64,000 bases of DNA from Acidimicrobiia bacterium (GTDB lineage: Bacteria; Actinomycetota; Acidimicrobiia; Spongiisociales; UBA5794). The notes under the pieces were generated by a model. That model made no database searches and had not been told where the DNA came from. It worked only from the letters and a program-made list of their open reading frames with translations. Shown here piece after piece: positions 15,350 through 31,377 of this stretch. Position 1 is the first letter of the stretch, and each line of letters opens with the position of its first letter. The position numbers and the translations under genes are program-made. Location of the stretch: contig JANTHO010000004.1 of assembly GCA_024762335.1 (NCBI GenBank), positions 5,614 through 69,613 on the forward strand. Reading direction: 5' to 3'.

Positions 15350-16357
15350 TTAGAGGCCGAGGCGTTGGCGGATGACGGAGAACGCGTCATCCGACTCCTC
15401 TGGGATCATGAAGGAGAAGCCCCGGTGACCCGTGAGCTTCTTCACCAGCTCCACCGACGCCGTTGTGTTCGTGGCCATCCCCGCGACGACGTCCGGTTCG
15501 TAGCCGAAACCGGCGATCACGCCCGAGACAGCGTACGGATCCGACGCGCACAACACGGTGCACCGGACGTTCTCCCCGAGCTCTTCGAGCACAATCTCAC
15601 CGTTGTACGGCTCGAGCGGGGATGCGCCGGCCTCCGCCACGACCACATCCGGGCGTCGGGAGGCAACGAGGGCGAGCAGGTCGCGGAGCCTCGAGCGAAA
15701 GAAGTCCGGATCGGCGATCGTCGACGGGAGGCCAACGTCCACGAAGTCGTAGATGTCGTCTGCGCCGGAGTCCCACATGGCAAGCACATCCCGGTAGCGC
15801 CCGGCCCCGGTGAGTTTCGTTCCGACGATGTGCAAGCCGAGTTCCTTGAGATGCCGGATGATGCGCTTGGCGGCCGTCGTCTTGCCCGCCGACATCGACG
15901 TTCCGATCACGATGACGGTCGGTATGTCGTAGATGACATCGGGAACCGGTGGGACGAAGTCGCCCATCGTCATCTTGCGACCGCCACGGGTCACGTGGCC
16001 CACATAGCGGAGGCGCATCAGCGGCGGCATGAGCGGAGCGATGGAGGTGACACGCCCGAACAGGCCGGCTGCCGTGAGAGCGTTGAACATGCCGTCGTCT
16101 CCGATGTGAGTCCAGTCGCCGACCGCTTCGAGTGTGGCCCTTCGAATTCCCCACGCTCCGACGACGAGATCCCCTTCGACCACTTCGATCATGCGTCCAT
16201 TGCGAAGCTCGACGCGTGAATACATTCCGGCCCGGCCGACGACTCGCCCGACGACGTAGTCGCCGGCGTCCCAGTCGTCGCGATTCCACGGTTCGATGTT
16301 GAACGGGTCCTCGGCGAGGTTCGAGATGCGTGTCAGGGACGAGAAGAAGTACTTCAT
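15350..16357 (-). CDS. DUF1611-like P-loop protein
   Basis: VIGTSMSAGKTT, KLTGAGRYRD, GADDIYDFVDVGLPST; translationally coupled to the upstream M20 gene. Confidence 0.7.
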   Translation of the reverse strand: MKYFFSSLTRISNLAEDPFNIEPWNRDDWDAGDYVVGRVVGRAGMYSRVELRNGRMIEVVEGDLVVGAWGIRRATLEAVGDWTHIGDDGMFNALTAAGLFGRVTSIAPLMPPLMRLRYVGHVTRGGRKMTMGDFVPPVPDVIYDIPTVIVIGTSMSAGKTTAAKRIIRHLKELGLHIVGTKLTGAGRYRDVLAMWDSGADDIYDFVDVGLPSTIADPDFFRSRLRDLLALVASRRPDVVVAEAGASPLEPYNGEIVLEELGENVRCTVLCASDPYAVSGVIAGFGYEPDVVAGMATNTTASVELVKKLTGHRGFSFMIPEESDDAFSVIRQRLGL

Positions 16358-17544
16358 CGTCGTTCTCCTCCGTGTCGCTGATCGAGCGGTTCCATCAATA
16401 GCGCGGCGAGCAACGCCGTGCGGGGGACGAGATTCGTGATGTCGATGCGTTCTCCGGGTGCGTGAGCTCCATCGCCGATGACTCCCAAGCCGTCGAGCGT
16501 CGCCGTGTATCGGCTCGTGGTGTTGCCGTCCGATCCGCCTCCCGCGGTCACCCCGGTGATGTCCATTCCGAGGGTGGCGCCGATTCGTCGGGCTCGTTCG
16601 AAAAGGATTTCGTTGCGCTCGGACCGAACCATCGGTGGGCGGCCGAAGCCGCCGGTGACGGTGACGGCGGCGCCGGGCGTCGATGCCCTGATGGAGCGGA
16701 TCTCGTCGTCGATCCGTTCGGCATCCTCGTCGCTCAGAACCCGTACATCGACGACCGCCCGGCTCGACGGCGCGATGACGTTCGGCTGGATTCCCCCCTC
16801 GATCGTGCCGACGTTCACCGTGATATCGCGGGCTCGGTCGTTGAGGGAGAACAGTCGTTGGATGATGCTCGACAACTCGAAGATCGCGCTCACGCCCGAG
16901 TCGGGGTCGAGGCCCGCGTGGGCCGCCTTGCCGTGAACCGTCACCGTGTAGCGAGCGATCCCCTTCCTCGCCGTCTTGAGGGACCCGTTGGGCCCCATCC
17001 CCGGTTCGCAGATGAACGCCCGTGCCGAGATCCGGGCCAGGCGAGCGATCGTCGCACCCGATTCGCGGCTTCCGATCTCCTCGTCGGTGTTGAGCAGAAC
17101 GAGGGGGCTCGCCGGAAGATCAACACCAAGCTCGTACAGCGTGCGCAGGGCGAAGACGATCTGTACGAGGCCGGCCTTCATGTCGAACACCCCGGGCCCC
17201 TTCGCCGTGTGTCCGGCGACGGTCCAGGGTCGAGTAGCCAGCGTTCCCTTCGGCCAGACCGTGTCGACATGCCCGACGACGAGCTGCGCCGGATGACATC
17301 GCGGATGGCGCCCCGGCCGGGCGAAGAGGTAGCCGCCGGAGTGATGCGGCGGTGACAGCCGATGCCGGTAGCCGATCTGGGTGAATTCGACGCCGAGACG
17401 TTCGAGTACCGGACGGGTCGCCGATGGATCGTCGGACGGGCTCTCCATGGAGACGAGTTCCTCACACAGTTCGAGCAGGGACTCCTCGTGGACACGGAGA
17501 AGCTCGAGGATCGTGGCAGGGTGGACGGTCGTCGTGACGTTCAT
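16354..17544 (-). CDS. M20 family metallopeptidase (glutamate carboxypeptidase G2-like)
   Basis: VGHVDTVW, GPGVFDMKAG, TDEEIGS, GKAAHAG, GGGSDGN, DGLG..GDGAH; ATGA overlap with the upstream gene fixes the start at 17544. Confidence 0.9.
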   Translation of the reverse strand: MNVTTTVHPATILELLRVHEESLLELCEELVSMESPSDDPSATRPVLERLGVEFTQIGYRHRLSPPHHSGGYLFARPGRHPRCHPAQLVVGHVDTVWPKGTLATRPWTVAGHTAKGPGVFDMKAGLVQIVFALRTLYELGVDLPASPLVLLNTDEEIGSRESGATIARLARISARAFICEPGMGPNGSLKTARKGIARYTVTVHGKAAHAGLDPDSGVSAIFELSSIIQRLFSLNDRARDITVNVGTIEGGIQPNVIAPSSRAVVDVRVLSDEDAERIDDEIRSIRASTPGAAVTVTGGFGRPPMVRSERNEILFERARRIGATLGMDITGVTAGGGSDGNTTSRYTATLDGLGVIGDGAHAPGERIDITNLVPRTALLAALLMEPLDQRHGGERR

Positions 17545-18137
17545 CTCGACCATCCGGAGTAGAAGGGGAAGCTCCTGGCGTCATCGATGACCGCGAATCG
17601 ACCCGGACTCAGATAGGTGAGGAGTGGGGCGTCGGAGACGACGTGTTCGTCCTCGCGGTCGAGCGACCGTAGGGCGGCTTCATCGATCGATGCGGCAACA
17701 ACGCGTCCGATGACCAGGCTGTTCGGGCCGAGCTCGTCGACGGTGCGCTCAAGCGTACATTCGAGATGGATCCGTGCCCCACGAACGAGGAACCCGTTCA
17801 CGAACTCGGCGCGGACGGTCGGTATGGAACCGAGCGTGGGCTTCGTGCCTTCGTCGGTTCGAGGGGCCGCGGTGAAGCTTGCCGTGACGACCTGCTCCGG
17901 AGTCGGGTACGAGACGGTGAACACCCCGGTTCGCTTCGCATTCCGGTATGTGGCGTGGTCCTCACAGCAGACGAACCCGAAGTAGTTGTCCCATGAGACC
18001 GGGCCGGCCATGTGCTTCGGCGCGAAGTCGACCGTTCCGTCCGGTTCGGTGGTTCCGATGATGACGAGCGGGTGAACGAGAAAGAAGCGGTCCCAGATCG
18101 GGACGGTGCAATCGATGGAGATGGATTCGCCGCTCAT
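17541..18137 (-). CDS. Flavin reductase-like (split-barrel) protein
   Basis: LVIIGT, DFAPK, HATYRNAKRTGVFTVS, HLECTL, SLVIGRV. Confidence 0.8.
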   Translation of the reverse strand: MSGESISIDCTVPIWDRFFLVHPLVIIGTTEPDGTVDFAPKHMAGPVSWDNYFGFVCCEDHATYRNAKRTGVFTVSYPTPEQVVTASFTAAPRTDEGTKPTLGSIPTVRAEFVNGFLVRGARIHLECTLERTVDELGPNSLVIGRVVAASIDEAALRSLDREDEHVVSDAPLLTYLSPGRFAVIDDARSFPFYSGWSR

Positions 18138-18209: not shown

Positions 18210-19223
18210 CTACTCGGCTGCAATCAGCGGGCGGTCGAGGTGGCGATAGTCGCCGGTTCGGAGATGGCACGCTGCTTCGTGGCCTTCACCGTTGATTGAT
18301 CGCAGTTCGGGTTCGTAGACGTCGCAGAGCCCCTTCTCGGCGATCGGGCACCGTGTGTTGAAGCCACAGCCGGTGGGTGGGTTGAGCGGACTGGGGAGGT
18401 CACCCTCGAGGAGGATGCGCTTCCGGTGCACCGTCGGATCGGGAACGGGGATCGCCGACAGCAACGCCTCGGTGTAGGGGTGGGTGGGGCGGTTGAAGAT
18501 GTCGTCACGGTTGGCGATCTCGACGATCTTCCCGAGGTACATCACGGCGATCCGGTCGCACAGATGCTCGACGACGCTGAGATCGTGAGCGATGAACAGC
18601 AGGGTCAGGTCCAGTTCGCGCTGGAGCTGCTTGAGCAGGTTCAAGATCTGCGACTGAATCGATACGTCGAGTGCCGAAACCGGTTCGTCGAGTACGAGGA
18701 ACCGGGGATTGACGGCGAGTGCCCTGGCGATGCCGATGCGCTGACGCTGCCCCCCGGAGAACTCGTGCGGATAGCGGTTGGCGTGGTACGGCTCGAGGCC
18801 GACGAGTTCGAGCACATCCGCCACCCTGCGGCCCCGCTGCTTTCGGGAGAGACCCTGGACGCGAAGGCCTTCGGCGATCGAGTCCCCGACGCTCGTGCGT
18901 GGATCGAGCGAGCCGAACGGGTCCTGGAACACCACCTGGGCATCTCTCCGATACCCTTTCAGATCCTTCTGCGACAGTTGGAGGACGTCGTTGCCGTCGA
19001 ATACGACCGATCCGGCGTTGGGTTCCTCGAGTCGGAGGATGGCCCTGCCGAACGTCGACTTCCCGCAACCCGACTCGCCGACGAGGCCGAGCGCCTCGCC
19101 CCGATAGATATCGAGATCGACACGGTCGATGGCCTTGACGAGACCGAGCACCTTCTGGAACGCGCCGCCCTTGACCGGGTACGTCTTGACGAGGCCGCGA
19201 ACGCTCATGAGGGGCTCGGTCAC
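18210..19223 (-). CDS. dppF: Oligo/dipeptide ABC transporter ATP-binding protein
   Basis: [39 protein letters not shown]-terminal CGFNTRCP...C...ACH. Confidence 0.92.
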   Translation of the reverse strand: MTEPLMSVRGLVKTYPVKGGAFQKVLGLVKAIDRVDLDIYRGEALGLVGESGCGKSTFGRAILRLEEPNAGSVVFDGNDVLQLSQKDLKGYRRDAQVVFQDPFGSLDPRTSVGDSIAEGLRVQGLSRKQRGRRVADVLELVGLEPYHANRYPHEFSGGQRQRIGIARALAVNPRFLVLDEPVSALDVSIQSQILNLLKQLQRELDLTLLFIAHDLSVVEHLCDRIAVMYLGKIVEIANRDDIFNRPTHPYTEALLSAIPVPDPTVHRKRILLEGDLPSPLNPPTGCGFNTRCPIAEKGLCDVYEPELRSINGEGHEAACHLRTGDYRHLDRPLIAAE

Positions 19224-20218
19224 GAGACACCCTCCTCATAGAGGAAACAACGGGTCGTGTGGCCGTCCTCGACGGTCCGCAACTCCGGGCGCTGCTCCGT
19301 GCAGATGCTGAGTCTGGCCTCTTCCCTGGCACGGCAACGGGGGGCGAATCGGCACCCACTGGGAAGGTCGATCAAGTTGGGGACCCGTCCTGGAATGACT
19401 TCGAGCCAGTCCTTTCGTGCTCCGGCGACCGGGATCGATCCGATGAGGCCCTTCGTGTACGGATGCTTGGGATCGGCGAAGAGCGTCTCCACGTCGGCCT
19501 CCTCGACGATCTCGCCGGCGTACATCACGGCCACACGGTCGGCGAGTTCGGCCACGACGCCGAGGTCGTGTGTGATGAGGATGATCGACGTGTCGAACTC
19601 GTCCCGGATCTCGCGCATGAGGTCGAGGATCTGTGCCTGGATGGTGACGTCGAGCGCCGTCGTCGGTTCGTCGGCGATCAGGAGCTCCGGACCGGCCGCC
19701 AGGGCCATTGCGATCATGACGCGTTGAGCCATGCCGCCGGACAGTTCATGGGGGTAGGCCTTGACCCGCTGCTCGGGATCCGGGATGCCGACCCTTCTGA
19801 GCATCTCGACGGCGCGGACGTACCCTTCTTTCGTCTTGATCCCTTCATGTATCTCGTAGACCTCGGCGATCTGCGACCCGGCGGTGAACACCGGATTGAG
19901 CGAGCCGACCGGCTGCTGGAAGATCATCGAGATGCGATCACCTCGGATCGAACGCATCTCCTTCTCGGAGAGTTCGAGGAGGTCGTCGCCGTGGAATTGC
20001 ACGGTGCCGCCGACGATCTTCCCGGGATCCTGGATGAGTCGGAGGATGGACATCGATGTGACGGACTTGCCGCACCCGGACTCGCCGACCAGGCCGAGGA
20101 TCTCGCCCTTGTCGACGGTCAGGTCGACGCCGTCGACGGCTTTGACCACACCGTCGCGGGTGAAGAAGTGCGTTTCGAGCCCCCGGACCTCGAGCACCGT
20201 CTCAGGCTTCGTGGTCAT
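19220..20218 (-). CDS. dppD: Oligo/dipeptide ABC transporter ATP-binding protein
   Basis: [36 protein letters not shown]; start MTTKPET overlaps the upstream stop. Confidence 0.92.
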
Positions 20219-21204
20219 TTCCCGAGCCTCGGATCGATGGCATCGCGGAGGCCGTCGCCGAGCAGATTGAACCCGAGGACGTTCCACATGATCATCAGAC
20301 CGGCGAAGAACACGAGGTGCGGGGCCGTGAACACCTGGTTGCGTTCGGCTGCGAGCATCGATCCCCATTCGGGTGTGGGAGGCTGGACCCCGAGTCCGAG
20401 GAACGACAGCGATGCGATCTCGAGCACGGCGGTGGCGACGCCGAGCGTGGCCAGAACGATCAGCGGTGTCAACGTGTTCGGGAAGATCCGGTGGGCGAGG
20501 ATGCGCCAGCGGGTGACCCCGAGGGCGCGGTCGGCCGAAACGTACTCCTGTTCGCGGATGCTCAGCACGGAGGAACGGACGATACGGGCATATTGGGGGA
20601 TCGTCACGATCGCGATCGCGAGGATCGCGTTGATCAGACCCGGCCCGAGCACAGTGACAACGGCGATCGCGAGTAACAGGGACGGGAACGACAACAAGAC
20701 GTCCATGACGCGCATCAGGATGTTGTCGGTCCATCCGCCGAAGAAACCGGAGAGGAGGCCGACGATCGTCCCCCAGAACACCGCGAACAGCACGGCGGCG
20801 AACGCTGCGATCAGCGAGATCCGGGATCCATAGACGATCCTGGAGAAGTAGTCGCGGCCGTTGCCGTCGATCCCGAGGATGTGTTGGGGTGTTTCCGGGT
20901 CGCACCCCAGCAGATGGATGCACGGCGGATCACGGGGAGCGACTCCCTCATCGAACAGCACCTGGTTCGGATCGTACGGTGCGATGACCGGGGCGAAGAC
21001 GGCCAGGATCAGCAGGACGGAGAGGAGCGTGAGGCCCACGATCGCCGATTTCTTGCGAACGATCTCGCGTCCCGCTGTGCGCCACAGCCCGCCGGTCGTG
21101 GTCGCCGAAACGTCGCCGCCGCTGAGATCGATACGCACCTCGTCCCTGACCTCGTCGGAGGCTTCCATGCTCTCCAGCGGCTGTTCGTCGTGATGGTCGG
21201 TCAT
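20215..21204 (-). CDS. dppC: Oligo/dipeptide ABC transporter permease
   Basis: [58 protein letters not shown]. Confidence 0.92.
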
Positions 21205-22262
21205 GACACACGCACCCTCGGGTCGAGGTAGGTATAGAGAAGGTCGACGAGCAGGTTCACGATCACGAAACTCACCGCCACGACGAGCGTGAACCCTTGA
21301 ACCACCGTGTAGTCACGCGAGGTGATCGCGTCGAACAGGGTCTTTCCAACTCCGGTGAGATTGAAAATCGTTTCAGTGAGGATGGCCCCGCCGAGGAGGA
21401 GCCCGAACGAGAGACCGATGATCGTCACGACCGGAAGCATGGCGTTCCGGAGCGCATGTTTGAGCACCACGGTGCGTTCCCTGAGACCCTTCGCCCGTGC
21501 CGTACGGATGTAGTCGAGGCCGAGGACGTCGAGGAGCGACGATCGTGTCATCCGTGCGACGATCGCCATCGGGATCGTCGCGAGCGCGACTGCCGGCAGG
21601 ATGAGGTGCAGGAAGGCGCTTGAGAACACGTCCCACTGGAACGTGACGAGCGCGTTCATCAGTGTGAATTCCGAGAGGAATTCGGTGAATCCGTTCATCG
21701 GCAGATGCCACAACTCGTAGAACGGAACGGGGATCAGTCCCGCGTCGAGCTTGCCGGACGGGGGTAACGCCAGAGGCGTGTCGCGTAAGAAGACGGCGAA
21801 AATGTATTGCAGCATCAGGCCCAGCCAGAACACCGGCATGGCGACGCCGATGTTGGCGCCGATCATCGTCGCAACGTCGGTCTTGGAGTTGTGGCGGTAT
21901 CCGGAGACGATGCCGAGCGGTACGCCGACGATCACGGCGATGAAGAGTGCGGCTCCGGCGAGTTCAATCGTCGTGGGGAGTCGCTGGATCAACAGGTCGG
22001 TGACGGGAACACCGAAGCGGAACGACTCGCCGAGGTCTCCGGAAGCAATGTCTTTGAGGTAGATGCCGAACTGGACGTAGATCGGGTCGTTCAGACCGTA
22101 CCGCTCGTTGTAGGCGTCGCAGATTTCATCGGTGGCCCGTTCACCGAGCGCCGCCCGACACGGGTCGCCGGGAATCATCCGTGCGAGTGCGAACACGAGG
22201 GCCAGGATCCCGATGATTACCGGGATCGAAGAGATGAAACGGCGGAGTAGGAAACGGCCCAT
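21201..22262 (-). CDS. dppB: Oligo/dipeptide ABC transporter permease
   Basis: PGDP, RLPTTIEL, HLILPA, DYIRTARAKG, RDYTVVQG, DLLYTYLDPRV. Confidence 0.92.
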   Translation of the reverse strand: MGRFLLRRFISSIPVIIGILALVFALARMIPGDPCRAALGERATDEICDAYNERYGLNDPIYVQFGIYLKDIASGDLGESFRFGVPVTDLLIQRLPTTIELAGAALFIAVIVGVPLGIVSGYRHNSKTDVATMIGANIGVAMPVFWLGLMLQYIFAVFLRDTPLALPPSGKLDAGLIPVPFYELWHLPMNGFTEFLSEFTLMNALVTFQWDVFSSAFLHLILPAVALATIPMAIVARMTRSSLLDVLGLDYIRTARAKGLRERTVVLKHALRNAMLPVVTIIGLSFGLLLGGAILTETIFNLTGVGKTLFDAITSRDYTVVQGFTLVVAVSFVIVNLLVDLLYTYLDPRVRVS

Positions 22263-22282: not shown

Positions 22283-22314
22283 GATCTGTGGGGTGCAATC
22301 GCACCCCACAGATC
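22283..22314 (-). terminator. Perfect 14-bp hairpin between the binding-protein and permease genes (terminator or mRNA-stabilising stem)
   Basis: GATCTGTGGGGTGC-AATC-GCACCCCACAGATC, followed by TTTCTCT on the minus strand. Confidence 0.75.
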
Positions 22315-22333: not shown

Positions 22334-24064
22334 TCAGCCTGCGTTGTTCTTGAAGCCGAACAGGGCATCCCAGTACGTGAAGTTGCCATCACGACCGGTG
22401 TGGTTCGGGCTGTTCAAGTCCCACTGGGCGTCGTAGCTGGCCACGACGTCGTTGGCGTCGAATGCGCTGCCGTCGTGGAACGTCACTCCCTTGCGGAGGT
22501 GGAACGTCCACAGCGTGCCGTCCTCATTCGGCTCGTAGGTTTCGGCGAGAGCGGGAACGACGTTGGTGCCGCCGATCTCGTAGGCGAGGAGCGATTCTGT
22601 GATCTGCTCACAGGCACGCAGGCTCTCGCCGTCGGTCTCATCTGCGCAGTACAGGCCGATGGGCTCGGCGTTCTGCATCCACACGAACGTGTCGCGTCCA
22701 CCCGGATCCATCACAGCGAAGTACTCGTTGCCGAGCGGGCTCGCTTGTGCATTGGTGACGTCGGCACGGTAGCCAACGCCCGAACCGCCGTGGGCGATCG
22801 GAACCATCGGAACGTGCTGCTTGATGAGCGCGGTCGCCTTCTCGTAGATGTCGAGACGTGCGGCCGGGTCGGGCGTCGAAGCGCCTTCGTCGAGCAGGTC
22901 CCAGATGTCTTCGAAACCGGCGCCGAACTGATCGGACGCGGTCCTTCCAAAGTGGAAGTCGAGGAAGTTGGTGGCGTCCGGATAGTCCGCGCCCCAACCG
23001 AGCATGTACATGGTCAGCTCACCGGCGTCGCTGGCGTCGAGGAAGGCCCCGGACTCCATGACTTCGATGTTGACCTTGACGCCGATGTCTGCGAGCTGTG
23101 CCTGGATGTCCTGGCCGACGGTTGCCGGCGAGGGCAGGTAGCTGCGGACGACGTCTCGGTAGTTCAATGTCACTTCGAAACCGTCGGGGTATCCCGCTTC
23201 GGCGAGCAGCGCCTTGGCGCCCTCGACGTCCTGGTCGTACCACTTGGGCTCCGGCGTGTATCCGAAGATCGGTTCCGGCATGAACTGGTCTGCGACCTTC
23301 GAACCTGGTGGGTAGAAGTTGTCGACGATCCGCTGACGGTCGAGCGCCATGCCGATGGCCTGGCGGACCCGCTCGTCGGTGAACGGCTCCTTGTCCCGGT
23401 TCATGCCGAGATAGAAGATGTTCGTGCCTGCCCGCTCCTTCAGCTGAAGGTCGGGGGAGTCCGAGATCAGAGCGAAGTCGTCACGGCCCGGGTTGTCGAT
23501 ACCGTCGACGGTGCCCGCCTGGAGTTCGACGAAGCGCTGAGCGGCTTCCGAGCTCCACTTGAACACGAGCGTGTCGGTGATCGCCTGATTGCCCCAGTAG
23601 TTGGGGTTCTTTTCCATGACGAGCTGGTTGCCCTTGTCCCACTGCTTGAGCATGTAGGGACCGGTGCCGACTGGTGCGTCCACGAGTGCGCCGCCGCCGC
23701 CATTGGCGTCGAGGTACTCCTGCGGGACGATGCCGAACGCAGAGAACGCAACCTTCGCCGGGAATGCGACGTCCTGGGTGCACAACTGGATCTCGACGGT
23801 GTTCTCATCTACCGCCTTGATGTAGTTGATGTTGCTGGTGTTCGTCGGGTCGTCGCAATCTGCTTCAACCATCATGCCGGCGAACTCTGCGCCTGCGGCG
23901 GTGGTCGTTGTTGCTTCCGTTCCTCCGCTTGCGGCGGTGGTTGTTGTTGCCTCGGTTCCTCCGCTTGCGGCGGTGGTGGTCGTCTCCTCAGAGCTCGACC
24001 CACATGCTGCCGCGATGAGTGCCATCACGAAGACGAGGACAAGTAGTTTGCTGAATCGTTTCAA
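22334..24064 (-). CDS. dppA: Family-5 (DppA/OppA-like) lipoprotein solute-binding protein, circularly permuted
   Basis: TTG start after GGAAGGAGG RBS; lipobox IAAAC; PVGTGPY, RVRQAI, GWGADYPDA. The usual N-terminal block PALAE..DG..WTFHLRKGVTFHDG lies at the C-terminus. Confidence 0.9.
   Translation of the reverse strand: MKRFSKLLVLVFVMALIAAACGSSSEETTTTAASGGTEATTTTAASGGTEATTTTAAGAEFAGMMVEADCDDPTNTSNINYIKAVDENTVEIQLCTQDVAFPAKVAFSAFGIVPQEYLDANGGGGALVDAPVGTGPYMLKQWDKGNQLVMEKNPNYWGNQAITDTLVFKWSSEAAQRFVELQAGTVDGIDNPGRDDFALISDSPDLQLKERAGTNIFYLGMNRDKEPFTDERVRQAIGMALDRQRIVDNFYPPGSKVADQFMPEPIFGYTPEPKWYDQDVEGAKALLAEAGYPDGFEVTLNYRDVVRSYLPSPATVGQDIQAQLADIGVKVNIEVMESGAFLDASDAGELTMYMLGWGADYPDATNFLDFHFGRTASDQFGAGFEDIWDLLDEGASTPDPAARLDIYEKATALIKQHVPMVPIAHGGSGVGYRADVTNAQASPLGNEYFAVMDPGGRDTFVWMQNAEPIGLYCADETDGESLRACEQITESLLAYEIGGTNVVPALAETYEPNEDGTLWTFHLRKGVTFHDGSAFDANDVVASYDAQWDLNSPNHTGRDGNFTYWDALFGFKNNAG
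23895..23986. repeat. 36-bp tandem repeat (about 2.5 units) encoding the (TTTTAASGGTEA)n linker
   Basis: gcggcggtggtcgttgttgcttccgttcctccgctt / gcggcggtggttgttgttgcctcggttcctccgctt / partial third unit. Confidence 0.85.
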
Positions 24065-24166
24065 GGGTGCCTCCTTCCCCTGTTTGGGGCCGATCCGCTG
24101 GATCGGTCGATTCAACGCTAGTCGTTCGCGAGGGACCAATGTTCCAACAATCGGCGATCGCTCATT

Positions 24167-24217
24167 CCGCGGGCCCGGGACGCCATATAGGGCGCAGAGA
24201 ACCCTGGGTTCGTGTCG
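24167..24217 (-). repeat. 51-bp dispersed repeat, copy 5 (singlet)
   Basis: CCGCGGGCCCGGGACGCCATATAGGGCGCAGAGAACCCTGGGTTCGTGTCG between divergent genes. Confidence 0.95.
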
Positions 24218-24245
24218 GGGTAGGGTTTGCGGGTTGCGCGAAGGG

Positions 24246-25076
24246 GTGCCCATCCGTACGACGATTGTCATGATCACGATCTCGGCGCTGATCTCGGTGC
24301 TGGCGTTCGTCGCGACCGTGGCCTTCTGGATCCAGCGATCGGCAGGCGACGAAGCGGCGTTCAGCGCCAACGCTACCGAGGTGCTCGCCATGGACTCTTC
24401 GCAGCAGGCGCTAGCGGAACGGTTGATGGACGAGGCGATCGATGCCGTCCCCCTGTTGGCGCTCGTTCGCGGTGCCGGCGAGCAGGCGACGGTCGTACTG
24501 CTCGACTCGGGAGCGTTCGACGAGGCGATGAGCCGCGTCATCATCGAAGCGCACCGGCACGTCGTGTCCGGAGAAGAGGGTCCGTTCACCGCCGACCTGA
24601 CCGACGTGCGTGATGTTCTCGTTGCACCGATCGCCCGTATCTCACCGGACCTTGCGGACCGGATACCGGTCGAAGTGTTCGAGAACGTTGTGATTCTCGA
24701 CTCCGGGGCTCTGCCGCTCCTCGGATTGCTGGCACGCGGACTCCCGGCGATCGTGATCTTCTCTGCTGCAGCCGCGGTCTTCCTAGCGGTCGCTCTGGTG
24801 ATGCTGGCGGATCGGCGGTCGATCGCGCTCGTCGCAGTGGGCCTCGCCGTGGCACTCGCAGGTCTCGGAGCGATGGTGTGGGGGACCGTCGGCGGGTCCG
24901 TCGCCGCCGACCGTATCGATGACGATCTGACGCGGGTTCTCGTCGTCAACGGCTACGCCGTGATCAGCCCGTGGCTCCGATCGGCTGGTTCCGTCCTCAT
25001 GGCCATCGGAGCCGTCTTCGCTGCGAGCGGGGTGGTCGTCTTCGCCGCACGGAGAGGAAGCGTCCGGGGTTCGTGA
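24246..25076 (+). CDS. Hypothetical integral membrane protein
   Basis: N-terminal TM, soluble domain and three C-terminal TMs; start uncertain (GTG 24246 or ATG 24270). Confidence 0.7.
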   Translation: MPIRTTIVMITISALISVLAFVATVAFWIQRSAGDEAAFSANATEVLAMDSSQQALAERLMDEAIDAVPLLALVRGAGEQATVVLLDSGAFDEAMSRVIIEAHRHVVSGEEGPFTADLTDVRDVLVAPIARISPDLADRIPVEVFENVVILDSGALPLLGLLARGLPAIVIFSAAAAVFLAVALVMLADRRSIALVAVGLAVALAGLGAMVWGTVGGSVAADRIDDDLTRVLVVNGYAVISPWLRSAGSVLMAIGAVFAASGVVVFAARRGSVRGS

Positions 25077-25147: not shown

Positions 25148-26065
25148 CTATCCGGTGACGCCGATCGCTTTCAGCCATTCGGCTGCGACGGTCTCCGGAT
25201 CCTTGCCGTCGATTCCGACGAACTTGTTGAGGGAGATCAGTTCGGCCGTCGTCAATTTCAGCGACACCTTGTTGAGGGTCTCGCCCAGTCCGTCGCCGTA
25301 GGCATCGACGATTTCGGTGCGTACGACCGGGGCCAGATTCTCGGCCGGCTGCAGTCCCTTGTCGTCCTCGAGGAGAACGAAGTCCTTCGCGAGGATGGTT
25401 CCGTCGCTGGTAAACATGAGTCCGACCTGGATCTCGTCACCTTCGAGGGCGGCGACCGTGATCGGGCCACCGACGTCGAGTGGGCGGAACTCCTGGAAGC
25501 TCAGCCCGTATACGCTCTCGAGGCCCTTGAGGCAGAACTCCCGTTCCGGACATTCGGGTGGGCCGCCGAGGACGAGCGTGTCGTTGTACGCCGCCAGGTC
25601 CGAGACCTTCGCGACCCCCAGTTCGTCGGCCGTTGCCTTCGTCACCACGAAGCCGTTCTTGTCCTGTGCCGCCGCGTAATCGAGGACCGTGAGGCCCTTC
25701 GGCTCCAGGGCGACCCGCAGCGCGGCGTGGGTCTCATCCGAGTCGGATGTTGCTGAGCCGCCGAGGAACGTCAGCATGGTTCCGATGTACTCCGGCACGA
25801 GATCGAGCTCTCCGGACTCGAGGGCCGGTTCGTAGATCTCCCGGTTCCCAACGTTCAGTTTCCGTTCGACCTGGTATCCGTCCGATTCGAGCGCCTGTGC
25901 GTAGATCTCGGCAACGAGCGCGTTCTCGCTGAAGTTCGCCGATCCGATCGTGATCGTCGGTCCTTCGATGGTTCCACCATCGCCACCCGACCCGCACGCG
26001 GCCGCGATGAGCGCGAACGCGGCGATGGCCGCCCCGGCGATGGTTCTGCGGCGTATGTTCCGCAT
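25148..26065 (-). CDS. Osmoprotectant (glycine betaine/choline) ABC substrate-binding lipoprotein
   Basis: Lipobox IAAAC; IGSANFSEN, DLVPEYIGT, LEDDK.LQPAEN; GGGAGGAG RBS. Confidence 0.9.
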   Translation of the reverse strand: MRNIRRRTIAGAAIAAFALIAAACGSGGDGGTIEGPTITIGSANFSENALVAEIYAQALESDGYQVERKLNVGNREIYEPALESGELDLVPEYIGTMLTFLGGSATSDSDETHAALRVALEPKGLTVLDYAAAQDKNGFVVTKATADELGVAKVSDLAAYNDTLVLGGPPECPEREFCLKGLESVYGLSFQEFRPLDVGGPITVAALEGDEIQVGLMFTSDGTILAKDFVLLEDDKGLQPAENLAPVVRTEIVDAYGDGLGETLNKVSLKLTTAELISLNKFVGIDGKDPETVAAEWLKAIGVTG

Positions 26066-26152
26066 GGGTCTCCTCCCATTTCGTTGTATGTCGATCAACC
26101 TAGCGAGAGGAACCCGCCAACGGTCGAAGTTCTTCCCGATTCCTGGGTCGGA

Positions 26153-26863
26153 TCAGGCGACGACGGATTCGACTTCGACCGGGCGGGAGCGGAGCGTCAC
26201 CGGCACGAGACGGTGCTCGAGCCACCCGAGGAGCACTTCGGTGATGATCGCGAGTCCCGCGACGAGTACCGCTCCGGCGAAGACGGTGACGTTGTCCTGG
26301 ATCGCGAACCCGTCGACGATGAAACGGCCGAGTCCTCCCCAACCGACGAGCGCTCCGAGGGTGGCGGTTGCGACCACCTGAACGGCGGCGACACGCCCGG
26401 CGGCGAGGATCACCGGCGAGGCCATCGGTAGTTCGACCGAGGAGAGCACTTCCCGATCGGTCATGCCCATGCCCCGCGACGCCTCAACCAGATCGGGGTC
26501 CACTTCGGCGACACCGGTGTAGGCGTTTGTGAACATCGGTGGCACGGCGAGGAACAGGAGGGCGAGGAACGTCGGCCAGAAGCCGATTCCGAGGCCGAGG
26601 CGGATGCTGATCGGCAGGAATAGGACGACGATCGCGAACGACGGGATCGCCCGTCCGATGTTCACGAACGCCACGACGAAGGTCCCGCCGATCCGCCGAT
26701 GGGCGAGCCAGACGGCCGGCGGGATCGCGAGGATCGCGGATGCTGCGGTTGCGGCCGCCGTGATCTGGACGTGCTCACGGAGACGGTTGAGGATCCCCGA
26801 CGATCCGAGCCAGTTCGCGGAGTCGGCGAACCACGCGACCACTTGACCGAGGAAGTCGATCAC
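26153..26863 (-). CDS. Osmoprotectant ABC permease
   Basis: NIGRAIPS, EASRGMGMT, VELPMASPVI, GWGGLGRFI. Confidence 0.9.
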   Translation of the reverse strand: MIDFLGQVVAWFADSANWLGSSGILNRLREHVQITAAATAASAILAIPPAVWLAHRRIGGTFVVAFVNIGRAIPSFAIVVLFLPISIRLGLGIGFWPTFLALLFLAVPPMFTNAYTGVAEVDPDLVEASRGMGMTDREVLSSVELPMASPVILAAGRVAAVQVVATATLGALVGWGGLGRFIVDGFAIQDNVTVFAGAVLVAGLAIITEVLLGWLEHRLVPVTLRSRPVEVESVVA

Positions 26864-27543
26864 AGCGCAACCCTTCGTCGCGACCACGGCGTGGCGATCC
26901 GTTGGATGCCGACCAGGGACAGGTCGACGGCGACGGCGAGGGCGACCGAGACGACGGTGCCGACGATGATCTGGGTTGTACCGATCGGGGAGTAGAAGAG
27001 GCTCAGGCCCCTGAGGATGAAGAACCCGAGACCCCCCTGGCCGATCAGGGCGGTCACCGTCACGAGTCCGATCGTCGTGACGGCGGCGATCCTGATCCCG
27101 GCGATGATCACCGGGAGGGCGAGTGGGAGTTCCACAGAGAAGAACAAGCCGCGATCCGTGTAGCCCATGCCGCGAGCCGACTCCACCGTGGCGGCTGGGA
27201 CGGCATCGATCCCAGCGACCGTGTTGCGGATCAGGATCAGCAGCGTGTACGAGACGAGGCCGATCTCGGCCGTGAGGATCGACAGGCCGGTGATGGGCAC
27301 GAGGAACGCGAAGAGCGCCAGGCTCGGGATCGTGTACAGGAATCCCGTGAACCAGGTAATGGGCGTGTAGGTGCGCCGGAAGCGAAGAGCGATCACCGAG
27401 AGAACGAGGCTGATCAGCATGCCGACGAACACGGCGATGCCGGTGAGGATGAGGTGCTCGACGGTTCGATCCCAGATGTCGTCCAGGTGGCCGGCGACCC
27501 AGGACCAGGAGAAGAAGCCGTCCGATGCTTGCAGGAAGATCAC
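26860..27543 (-). CDS. Osmoprotectant ABC permease
   Basis: YTIPSLALFA, ESARGMG, VELPLALPVIIAGIRIA, GQGGLG. Confidence 0.9.
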   Translation of the reverse strand: MIFLQASDGFFSWSWVAGHLDDIWDRTVEHLILTGIAVFVGMLISLVLSVIALRFRRTYTPITWFTGFLYTIPSLALFAFLVPITGLSILTAEIGLVSYTLLILIRNTVAGIDAVPAATVESARGMGYTDRGLFFSVELPLALPVIIAGIRIAAVTTIGLVTVTALIGQGGLGFFILRGLSLFYSPIGTTQIIVGTVVSVALAVAVDLSLVGIQRIATPWSRRRVAL

Positions 27544-28628
27544 CGGAGGATCTCGCGACTCACGGCGTCTGCAGTGACGACGCCGAGCATCACCGGTCCG
27601 TCGAAGACACCAGCGACCGATGTGTGCGACGACACGATGGCGTCGAGCGCCTCTTTGAGCGATGACTCCGGGGTGAGGCGTGTCTGGAACGCTTCGGTCG
27701 GTGCATGTGTGACGCCATCGGTGGGAACGTCGTCGACACGGACCCACCCATCCACGGCCGATCCGTCGCGCACGGCCACCCAGTCGGTTCCGTACTCGCG
27801 GGCGGTGGCGACGGCCCGGGCCCGGGAAGCAGAACGTTCCACGACGGGTCCGGCCTCGAGGTCGAGATCCGAGATCGGGATCAGGGAGAGCCGCTTGATG
27901 CCCCGGTCCGTTCCGAGGAAGTCGGCGACGAACGCGTTCGCGGGGTCGCGCAGGATCTCGCCGGGAGGACCGTACTGCTCGAGGTGGCCGCCCTCGCTGA
28001 GGATCGCGACGCGGTCTCCCAACTTGATCGCCTCGTCGATGTCATGGGTGACGAGGGCGATGGTCTTCTGCAGGCGTTGCTGAAGCGCCAGGAGTTCGTC
28101 CTGGAGGTGGGCCCGCACGATCGGGTCGACGGCGCCGAACGGTTCATCCATCAGCAGTACCGGGGGATCGGCCGCCAGTGCCCGTGCCACACCGACCCGC
28201 TGCCGCTGGCCGCCGGAGAGCTCCGCGGGGTAGCGATCGAGCATGTCCGGGTCGAGCGCGACGAGCTCGGTGAGTTCGTCCACTCGATCGGCGATTCGCG
28301 TCTTGTCCCAACCGAGGAGACCGGGAACGGTGCCGATGTTCTGACGGATCGTGCGGTGGGGGAAGAGGCCGACCTGCTGGATGACGTAGCCGATGCTCCG
28401 ACGCAGCTCGTGCACGGGAGCCGCCTCGACCGATCGACCGCCGATTTCGATCGTTCCCGCTGTGGGCTCGATGAGACGGTTGATCATCTTCAGCGTTGTC
28501 GTCTTCCCGCAACCGGAGGGGCCGACGAGCACGGCGACTTCCCCGCGATCGATGTGGAGATTGAGCCGATCGACGGCCGGGTCGGCGTTGCCGGGGAAGG
28601 TCTTCGTCAGGTCTCTGAGGTCGATCAT
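27540..28628 (-). CDS. Osmoprotectant ABC ATP-binding protein (ProV/OpuCA-like, C-terminal CBS)
   Basis: GPSGCGKTT, YPAELSGGQRQR, LMDEPFGAVDP, VTHDIDEA. Confidence 0.92.
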   Translation of the reverse strand: MIDLRDLTKTFPGNADPAVDRLNLHIDRGEVAVLVGPSGCGKTTTLKMINRLIEPTAGTIEIGGRSVEAAPVHELRRSIGYVIQQVGLFPHRTIRQNIGTVPGLLGWDKTRIADRVDELTELVALDPDMLDRYPAELSGGQRQRVGVARALAADPPVLLMDEPFGAVDPIVRAHLQDELLALQQRLQKTIALVTHDIDEAIKLGDRVAILSEGGHLEQYGPPGEILRDPANAFVADFLGTDRGIKRLSLIPISDLDLEAGPVVERSASRARAVATAREYGTDWVAVRDGSAVDGWVRVDDVPTDGVTHAPTEAFQTRLTPESSLKEALDAIVSSHTSVAGVFDGPVMLGVVTADAVSREILR

Positions 28629-29164
28629 GGACCGTGAACGGCGCCGATGACGGCCCGTACCGCATCGTCGACGGTGTCGGCCAGGATCACGAGAGACCCG
28701 TCGGTGCGGAGCTCGTCGGTGAGGAGCGGGACGAGGCGGCGCCACTGCTCTCCGACTGCGACGACCGGTTTGGGCGTCGCCCCGGTGAAGCGGGCCACGT
28801 ACGCGAGGTTCCATGCGACGAGCAGTTCGGTTGCCGTACCGAGCGATCCGGGGAGAGCGATCGATGCCACCGAGAGATCGACCATCTCATGGATGCGTTC
28901 GAGGAGCGACGCGGTCCTCGTCTCTTCGGTCAGATGCGCGTTCCCTCCCGGTCGATCGGGAAACACGTCGGGGACGGTGACACCGATCACCCGGCCGCCC
29001 GCTTGGCGGGCACCGAGCGACACGGCTTCCATCAGCCCGGCATACCCACCGGTCGCGACGGCGTAGCCGGCCTCAGCGAGCAGGCGACCACAACGAACCC
29101 CATCCTCGTAGACGGGCTCACCGGGGAGCGGCGCGGAGGCCCCGAAGACGGCAACGACATCCAT
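28625..29164 (-). CDS. LOG-family nucleotide-binding protein
   Basis: VATGGYAGLMEAV..GA, ALPGSLGTATE; ATG is 8 nt after TAGCCT. Confidence 0.85.
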   Translation of the reverse strand: MDVVAVFGASAPLPGEPVYEDGVRCGRLLAEAGYAVATGGYAGLMEAVSLGARQAGGRVIGVTVPDVFPDRPGGNAHLTEETRTASLLERIHEMVDLSVASIALPGSLGTATELLVAWNLAYVARFTGATPKPVVAVGEQWRRLVPLLTDELRTDGSLVILADTVDDAVRAVIGAVHGP

Positions 29165-29201: not shown

Positions 29202-29252
29202 CGACACGAACCCAGGGTTCTCTGCGTCCCATATGACGTTGTCAGCCCGCGG
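29202..29252 (+). repeat. 51-bp dispersed repeat, copy 6 (left arm of empty doublet)
   Basis: CGACACGAACCCAGGGTTCTCTGCGTCCCATATGACGTTGTCAGCCCGCGG. Confidence 0.93.
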
Positions 29253-29271
29253 TTCACGAGGTGTCTCCATT

Positions 29272-29322
29272 CCGCGGGCCCGGGACGCCATATACAAAGC
29301 AGAGAACCCTGGGTTCGTGTCG
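29272..29322 (-). repeat. 51-bp dispersed repeat, copy 7 (right arm of empty doublet, 19-nt spacer)
   Basis: CCGCGGGCCCGGGACGCCATATACAAAGCAGAGAACCCTGGGTTCGTGTCG. Confidence 0.93.
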
Positions 29323-29343
29323 GGGAGGGGTAGGGTCGCCGGC

Positions 29344-31377
<2,034 letters not shown>

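Follow-up and report, generated by a model that had tools for sequence, protein, structure and literature searches.

A gene at positions 22334-24064 on the minus strand of a 64,000-nucleotide stretch of an Acidimicrobiia bacterium genome (contig JANTHO010000004.1, positions 5,614 to 69,613; hereafter the window) encodes the substrate-binding protein (SBP) of an ATP-binding cassette (ABC) importer and heads an operon of dppB-, dppC-, dppD- and dppF-type genes. The gene is a single unbroken open reading frame (ORF), and its translation gives a product of 576 amino acids that begins LKRFSKLLVLVFVMALIAAAC. From its N-terminus, the product consists of a signal peptide with lipobox, a Thr-rich tether, a short segment outside the alignment to the E. 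coli dipeptide-binding protein DppA, a long core collinear with most of DppA, a linker, the block with which DppA begins and a short tail (Table 1). The protein thus carries the DppA-opening block last and the core first.

Chain order of the binding protein

A phmmer search of all PDB chains returned 103 matching family-5 proteins, led by HbpA/GbpA 3m8u (2e-70) and the E. coli DppA structures 1dpp, 1dpe and 8z1y (~1e-68). A collinear full-length alignment was found to none of these 103 chains. Using the mature numbering of E. coli 1dpp/1dpe for DppA, residues 79-450 align to DppA 124-502 (E ~4e-53) and residues 459-568 to DppA 2-118, or 489-568 to DppA 33-118 (E ~5e-13). The matches of this relocated block to the N-termini of DppA and HbpA have E-values between 2e-13 and 1.5e-12. 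The two stretches adjoin in DppA, are swapped in order and together cover positions 2-502 of its 507 exactly once, with a break at DppA 119-123 and a join at DppA 502-507/1-2, and the length is canonical once the tether is left out. The same two-piece swapped pattern was obtained against HbpA/GbpA 3m8u, Yersinia DppA 5f1q and 8z1y. At the join, the 8-residue linker VMDPGGRD ties the ancestral C-terminus (...SPLGNEYFA) to the ancestral N-terminus (TFVWMQ...).

The Pfam profile PF00496 (SBP_bac_5) scores 304.5 bits against a gathering cut-off of 32.4, again in two stretches: profile positions 62-365 fall on residues 76-376 and positions 1-56 on residues ~500-556, the core first and the N-terminal block last instead of the canonical collinear order. 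Judged from these alignments, membership in family 5 (PF00496) is beyond doubt and the protein is a natural circular permutant, whose segments are swapped, adjoin and cover the reference once, and whose order, by the survey and the substitution rates below, is inherited and under selection. The original prediction for this locus, that the block opening DppA comes last, after SPLGNEYF, in a natural circular permutation with new termini, is borne out by the phmmer swap against DppA and by the linker; the split profile alignment to PF00496 that it proposed shows the two swapped stretches, and the collinear alignment to SBP_bac_5 proteins that would speak against it was looked for among the PDB chains and not found. 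In the same genome, a canonical family-5 paralogue (C69:3234-5274) gave only one weak high-scoring segment pair, at 24% identity, when compared by BLASTP with the protein and with its doubled mature sequence; this paralogue is therefore too distant to reveal a permutation, and the PDB phmmer alignments were used instead.

Read against DppA, the core runs from what remains of the N-lobe over one hinge crossover into the C-lobe and back over the other to the closing strands of the N-lobe; it contains C95, R307, Y309 and D360. The relocated block includes the stretch LAETYEPNEDGTLWTFHLRKGVTFHDG and the invariant Cys473 and Cys485; in the phmmer alignment, LAETYEPNEDGTLWTFHLRKGVTF falls on the signature region of DppA. 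By the PROSITE family-5 pattern, this stretch is signature-like.

The region before the lipobox is basic, then hydrophobic. Cys21, which we take from the lipobox pattern to be the lipid-attachment site, is kept in at least 90% of 56 homologues, and these homologues share the start position. With a signal peptide, a lipobox and this Cys, the product is a predicted lipoprotein. The DNA of the tether contains a 36-bp tandem repeat (23890-23977; 2.4 copies, 92% match) that encodes its TTTTAASGGTEA repeats. As the canonical paralogue likewise has a poly-Thr tether, Thr-rich linkers appear to be a habit of this organism; they may offer candidate O-glycosylation sites.

Distribution and selection

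More than 120 full-length homologues, with 58-100% identity, share the chain order. We also searched representatives of 50%-identity clusters with the last 169 residues of the protein, which span the junction. With E<=1e-10 as the limit, this query matched 754 representatives, of which 104 also passed E<=1e-30. Among the top 150 matches, almost every one aligns in a single stretch across the junction, and in those that are full-length this stretch forms the C-terminal end of a protein of ~550-600 amino acids. Relatives with the same chain order are present in at least 592 species genomes, some of them on megabase-size contigs. The best 80 come chiefly from Chloroflexota (Anaerolineae, Caldilineales, Ardenticatenaceae, Chloroflexia and Brevefilum) and also from Acidimicrobiia, where the isolate Ilumatobacter nonamiensis YM16-303 is one of the carriers; Caldilinea aerophila is another cultured carrier. 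Within Acidimicrobiia, 34 of 251 sampled genomes (22 of 114 genera) carry the protein, mostly in the same taxonomic order as the window, and every match in these 34 genomes spans the junction. By these searches, the rotated form is standard in hundreds of Chloroflexota species and in some Acidimicrobiia species. The original prediction had described a single case and called for a survey of its taxonomic range; the survey reveals a large family, mostly of Chloroflexota.

The ratio of non-synonymous to synonymous substitution rates (dN/dS), computed by segment against three close orthologues, lies between 0.08 and 0.13 for the whole protein, with 0.06-0.10 in the relocated block and 0-0.09 at the junction (residues 440-470). 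These values bear on the possibility that the swapped order is a mis-assembly, a chimeric call across tandem SBP genes or a decaying fusion remnant. The source genome is indeed a 117-contig draft, and tandem fusions of family-5 SBPs exist elsewhere. However, identical order, length and junction sequence recur in the at least 592 independently assembled species genomes, isolate and megabase contigs among them. The ORF is unbroken, with a ribosome-binding site, signal peptide and lipobox, dN/dS is ~0.1 in every segment, and no duplicated segment is left over, as the two stretches cover DppA once. The predicted structure described below is confident as well. An assembly artefact, which would have undone the original prediction, and a pseudogene were both rejected on the strength of the many species genomes, the synteny, the purifying selection and the confident model, and the probability left to any of these explanations is negligible. 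The binding-protein gene of this importer is neither an assembly error nor a pseudogene.

Two further observations concern the distribution. Among the best 80 records, the only one outside Chloroflexota and Actinomycetota (L087, CAZTLS010000035.1) is labelled Pleurocapsa sp. MAG (metagenome-assembled genome); with support 99 it clusters closely with a sequence from Anaerolineae, which makes mis-binning of the contig a likelier explanation than a copy in a cyanobacterium. Genomes of the same genus as the window (G012, G005, G009, G014, G016 and G020) fall into two tiers of identity to the junction query, 84-93% and 51-58%, and G012 has one copy of each. The two tiers point to a second, older permuted paralogue in the genus, which is absent from the present genome as assembled.

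Predicted fold and new attachment point

An AlphaFold2 model built with the 56 homologues is a confident single fold, with a mean predicted local distance difference test (pLDDT) of 87.9 and a predicted template modelling score (pTM) of 0.83; the relocated block reaches pLDDT 81-98. The new N-terminal segment, residues 61-78, is modelled at pLDDT ~95 with a short strand at 65-67. Foldseek overlays ~385 columns, the collinear three quarters of the model, on closed DppA/GbpA structures (5f1q, 3m8u and 1dpp) with a root-mean-square deviation (rmsd) of 1.9-2.2 Å, and the open form 1dpe overlays worse (6.1 Å). The template modelling scores (TM-scores), 0.63 by query length and 0.70-0.71 by target length, are near their ceiling because Foldseek, a sequential aligner, follows only the collinear part.

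In DppA, domain I comprises residues 1-33, 183-262 and 479-507, domain II residues 34-182 and domain III residues 263-478. The chain of the permuted protein begins at an N-lobe surface loop equivalent to DppA ~119-123. In this three-domain scheme, the cut would fall within domain II, which is the additional sub-domain that the N-lobe has. The original prediction was right about a new N-terminus; its placing of that terminus in the middle of domain I would be refined to domain II. The lipid tether would leave from domain II, not from strand 1 of domain I, and domain II would be assembled from the two chain ends. The DppA cleft lies between domains I and III (PMC8566422). From the topology, both hinge crossovers and the inter-lobe cleft should be unchanged and, with hinges and cleft untouched, flytrap closure and docking to DppBC should match those of canonical proteins.

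The four cysteines that the original prediction had named (in ADCDD, QLCTQ, LYCAD and RACEQ) are C70, C95, C473 and C485, all invariant in the 56 homologues. It had suggested that they might form new disulfides. Family-specific disulfides C70-C95 and C473-C485 plausibly staple the new ends.

Operon and neighbourhood

The coordinates of the gene, its segments and its operon partners are collected in Table 1.

Table 1 Features of the binding-protein gene and of the dpp operon (positions in the window; residues of the 576-residue product)
Feature	Positions	Strand	Basis or remark
Ribosome-binding site GGAAGGAGG	24070..24078	-	5 nt 5' of the TTG start; read from sequence
TTG start codon	24062-24064	-	read from sequence
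Signal peptide and lipobox (residues 1-21, ...LIAAAC)	24002..24064	-	translation; Cys21 = predicted lipid-attachment site
Thr-rich flexible tether (residues 22-60, TTTTAASGGTEA repeated)	23885..24001	-	predicted disordered, pLDDT 31-48; length varies among homologues
Family-specific new N-terminal segment (residues 61-78, FAGMMVEADCDDPTNTSN), with invariant Cys70	23831..23884	-	outside DppA alignment; no DppA counterpart
Collinear core (residues 79-450) = DppA 124-502	22715..23830	-	phmmer vs 1dpp/1dpe; PF00496 62-365; Foldseek
Arg307 codon, equivalent of DppA Arg355	23144..23146	-	gap-free alignment, offset +48; invariant in 56 homologues
Asp360 codon, equivalent of DppA Asp408	22985..22987	-	same gap-free alignment; invariant in 56 homologues
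Junction linker VMDPGGRD (residues 451-458)	22691..22714	-	between the two DppA-aligned stretches; near-invariant across the family
Relocated ancestral N-terminal block (residues 459-568) = DppA 2-118	22361..22690	-	phmmer; PF00496 1-56; AlphaFold2; dN/dS
New C-terminal tail (residues 569-576, FGFKNNAG) and TGA stop	22334..22360	-	translation
Hairpin GATCTGTGGGGTGC...GCACCCCACAGATC, perfect 14 bp (9 G-C), then TTTCTCT	22283..22314	-	terminator-like scan; between SBP gene and dppB
dppB/oppB-type permease	21201..22262	-	PF00528, PF19300
dppC/oppC-type permease	20215..21204	-	PF00528, PF12911 OppC_N
dppD ATPase	19220..20218	-	PF00005, PF08352 oligo_HPY
dppF ATPase	18210..19223	-	PF00005, PF08352 oligo_HPY

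By Pfam, dppB, dppC, dppD and dppF are all intact, as expected from the earlier description of an intact dppABCDF operon, and they provide the binding protein with a complete translocator of two BPD_transp_1 permeases (OppC_N) and two ATPases (oligo_HPY). Among 80 related loci, dppB lies directly downstream of the permuted gene in 72 and dppC is present in 69. The identities of dppB and dppC follow those of the binding protein across loci, so that A, B and C travel as a unit. The strong hairpin between the SBP gene and dppB is probably an intra-operon attenuator or a messenger RNA stabiliser, which would raise binding-protein output relative to the permease.

An M20 peptidase gene (16354-17553, minus strand) and a flavin reductase gene (17541-18137, minus strand) flank the Dpp operon, and an S9 prolyl-oligopeptidase/oligopeptidase-B-like gene (29233-31377, plus strand) lies near it; together they make this a peptide-catabolism neighbourhood. 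An ORF of 416 amino acids without a Pfam match (23826-25076, plus strand) covers part of the SBP gene from the other strand, and its downstream two thirds resemble a membrane protein. Further along, 25148-28814 (minus strand) is a separate ABC importer operon with an OpuAC-type glycine-betaine binding protein (25148-26098), two permeases and an ATPase. Natural circular permutation has previously been described in the class of binding proteins to which OpuAC belongs (PMC2395249).

Origin of the rotated order

Several proteins of the same fold family bear on how the order arose. P0221, a metagenome representative of 1202 amino acids, reads N-block, core, N-block, core, that is, two complete family-5 modules, and its residues 185-661 are collinear with residues 84-570 of the permuted protein at 34% identity. 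P0229 (2754 amino acids) has four complete tandem family-5 modules in one polypeptide. P0127 and P0274 show a second rotation within the permuted family, in which residues 286-575 of the permuted protein are followed by residues 82-292; P0127 is 52% identical to the permuted protein and keeps its junction, with a second cut close to residue 292. Six sequences make up its 90% cluster; one more of them is full-length and occurs on three contigs. P0269 has a further chain order, cut near residue ~380, with the last ~190 residues of the permuted protein first. A signal peptide with lipobox is also present in P0127/P0274 and P0269. The canonical order is thus joined by at least three others: that of the permuted family described here, that of P0127/P0274 and that of P0269.

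If permutation proceeds by duplication, fusions such as P0221 and P0229 are what one would expect as intermediates. The rotated protein could have arisen when tandem SBP genes fused in frame and the product then lost both its ends, and we favour this origin because tandem fusions of family-5 SBPs and two further permutants exist. Fission and re-fusion of the gene in reversed order, or recombination that moved the N-terminal block to the 3' end, would give the same result. Such a history would fit with the failure to find a close (>50% identity) tandem-duplicated intermediate of the permuted family, and with termini that carry family-specific additions (residues 61-78 and 569-576) and no obvious residual overlap. 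However, in-frame tandem fusions occur in the same sequence space and hold the permuted order as an internal window (P0221 185-661 and the four modules of P0229), P0127/P0274 re-joins the present termini with a linker, as a new round of tandem fusion predicts, and no split two-gene form was seen among the 80 loci. We consider fission or block transfer improbable. A possible residual overlap (N-terminal FAGM, consensus FEGM, against DppA FEGMG before the break) was dropped, being only 4-5 residues long and unsupported by P0221 or P0269.

After duplication, fusion and truncation, the A-B-C operon unit would have spread between Chloroflexota and Acidimicrobiia. In a quick maximum-likelihood (ML) tree, nine Actinomycetota sequences and that of the window form two clades among Chloroflexota lineages, an arrangement that needs two label changes, although one is also possible. 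Transfer between the phyla is likely on this tree, which does not fix its direction. The favoured origin has its own difficulties. None of the tandem fusions found exceeds 42% identity to the permuted protein (range 23-42%); these proteins show that fusion occurs, not that they are the ancestor of the permuted family. The outgroup branch (P0221 residues 185-661) is very long, at 9.25, so that neither the root nor the direction of transfer is secure, and rooting on this segment was dropped as a basis for the direction.

It is tempting to see the family-5 SBPs of monoderm-type lipoprotein-using lineages (Chloroflexota, Acidimicrobiia) as a hot-spot of repeated permutation via tandem fusion, with the rotation fixed as an adaptation; this idea is speculative and, in our judgement, doubtful. 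If it were true, a tether on a different face of the N-lobe would change how the receptor is presented to DppBC, and a rotated module might be more easily appended as a C-terminal sensor domain.

Ligand and function

In DppA, D408 binds the alpha-amino group of the dipeptide and R355 its alpha-carboxylate (PMC8566422). D360 and R307 of the permuted protein align to them without gaps, and both are invariant in the 56 homologues. The invariance of these equivalents leads us to expect dipeptides or very short peptides as ligands, to which we give a somewhat better than even chance. The main competing possibility is a genuine permuted SBP with a ligand other than a dipeptide (glutathione, haem, delta-aminolevulinate, tri- or tetrapeptides, cell-wall peptides, opine-like or amino-acid-derived compounds, or a metal chelate), or one that serves mainly as a sensor input rather than as a transport receptor. 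The best PDB match is the glutathione-binding HbpA/GbpA 3m8u, and NikA, SapA and AgaA match too; the DppA of mycobacteria accepts haem as well as tri- and tetrapeptides (PMC10954201); and members of the permuted family are fused to a Ser/Thr kinase, to caspase-FHA and to other modules. On the other hand, R355 and D408 fix the dipeptide register of DppA, and their counterparts do not vary within the family; the gene also stands first in a full importer operon that has peptidases close by, and no signalling domain is attached to this protein. We regard another ligand or a sensor role as the less probable choice.

Elsewhere in the family, the permuted module forms the C-terminal part of larger proteins (P0164, P0165, P0198, P0146, P0090, P0104-P0108 and P0114). 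Its partners there are a Ser/Thr kinase, caspase and FHA domains, a double zinc ribbon and SBP classes PF00497, PF02608 and PF01094/PF13458. These fusions, found chiefly in Chloroflexota, suggest use as sensors or as multi-receptors.

The protein is very probably a functional lipid-anchored receptor of the adjacent DppBCDF importer and a natural circular permutant of the cluster C/family 5 fold. The operon would then work as an importer in which the tethered permuted protein captures the ligand in the manner of a Venus flytrap. Several points weigh against this reading or parts of it. No PDB chain was found to match across the junction, and thus no permuted member has a solved structure. In the model, the relocated block would sit at the position of DppA 2-118, a placing that rests on AlphaFold2 confidence and on the expected order of secondary structure. 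The NCBIfam equivalog model for DppA, NF043070, gives 245.3 bits against a cut-off of 1005; this score, which also speaks for a ligand other than a dipeptide, marks the protein as DppA-like but no orthologue of E. coli DppA. The argument for dipeptide specificity is built on two residues, and among the proteins most closely related to DppA are some that bind glutathione or haem instead (3m8u and 3tpa).

Significance and comparison with known systems

Few receptors of ABC importers have been studied as closely as the cluster C binding proteins, which also serve widely as scaffolds for biosensors, and all solved structures matched here (103 PDB chains) have the canonical chain order. Profile-based pipelines label such proteins as ordinary 'ABC transporter substrate-binding protein' and so overlook the rearrangement. 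The rotated clade is a natural experiment on new termini in a 500-residue hinged fold, with fusions and other rotations available for comparison, and it offers natural, pre-validated split points for circularly permuted peptide sensors.

Compared with canonical DppA (1DPP, 1DPE, 5F1Q and 8Z1Y) and HbpA/GbpA (3M8U), the permuted protein shares all fold segments at ~30% identity, the ligand clamps R355/D408, a ~2 Å overlay of 385 residues and the DppB/C and DppD/F partners. It differs in that the first ~120 residues come last, behind an 8-residue linker, in its new termini in the N-lobe sub-domain, in its four family-specific invariant Cys and in being a predicted lipoprotein with a Thr-rich tether. 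It also scores far below the equivalog cut-off for DppA. The tandem and re-rotated proteins P0221, P0229, P0127/P0274 and P0269 belong to the same fold family and differ by having two or four modules or other cut sites.

The DppA of Mycobacterium tuberculosis (Mtb), part of DppABCD, is likewise an actinobacterial lipid-anchored Dpp-type binding protein of cluster C (PMC10954201). In the cryo-EM (electron cryo-microscopy) structure of that complex, the N-terminal loop and lipid anchor run along transmembrane helix 2 (TMH2) of DppB, and the authors propose recognition of the anchor as a prerequisite for assembly (PMC10954201). The tether of the permuted protein, unlike that of Mtb DppA, leaves from another point of the N-lobe and has a linker of ~40 residues; since it leaves elsewhere, the contact with DppB would be impossible in the same way. 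The rotated clade would thus offer a natural test of the proposal that the permease recognises the N-terminal tether of the SBP (PMC10954201).

No natural permutation of a family-5 SBP was described in the literature searched, an absence there that is not proof. What the search turned up were engineered sensors, general reviews and the glycine-betaine/ModA/CysB set (PMC2395249). In that set, OpuAC/ProX, the molybdate-binding proteins and CysB were identified with CPSARST as natural circular permutations among class II binding proteins (PMC2395249), and they provide a precedent that the bilobed fold tolerates permutation with the position of the ligand site kept. They belong to another SBP cluster of small two-domain proteins without the extra domain, and their relations are seen only structurally, at <24% identity, whereas the family-5 permutation is plain in the sequence and defines a large clade. 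Set beside these systems, the permuted protein probably performs an ordinary function in an unusual and widespread topology that is apparently undescribed.

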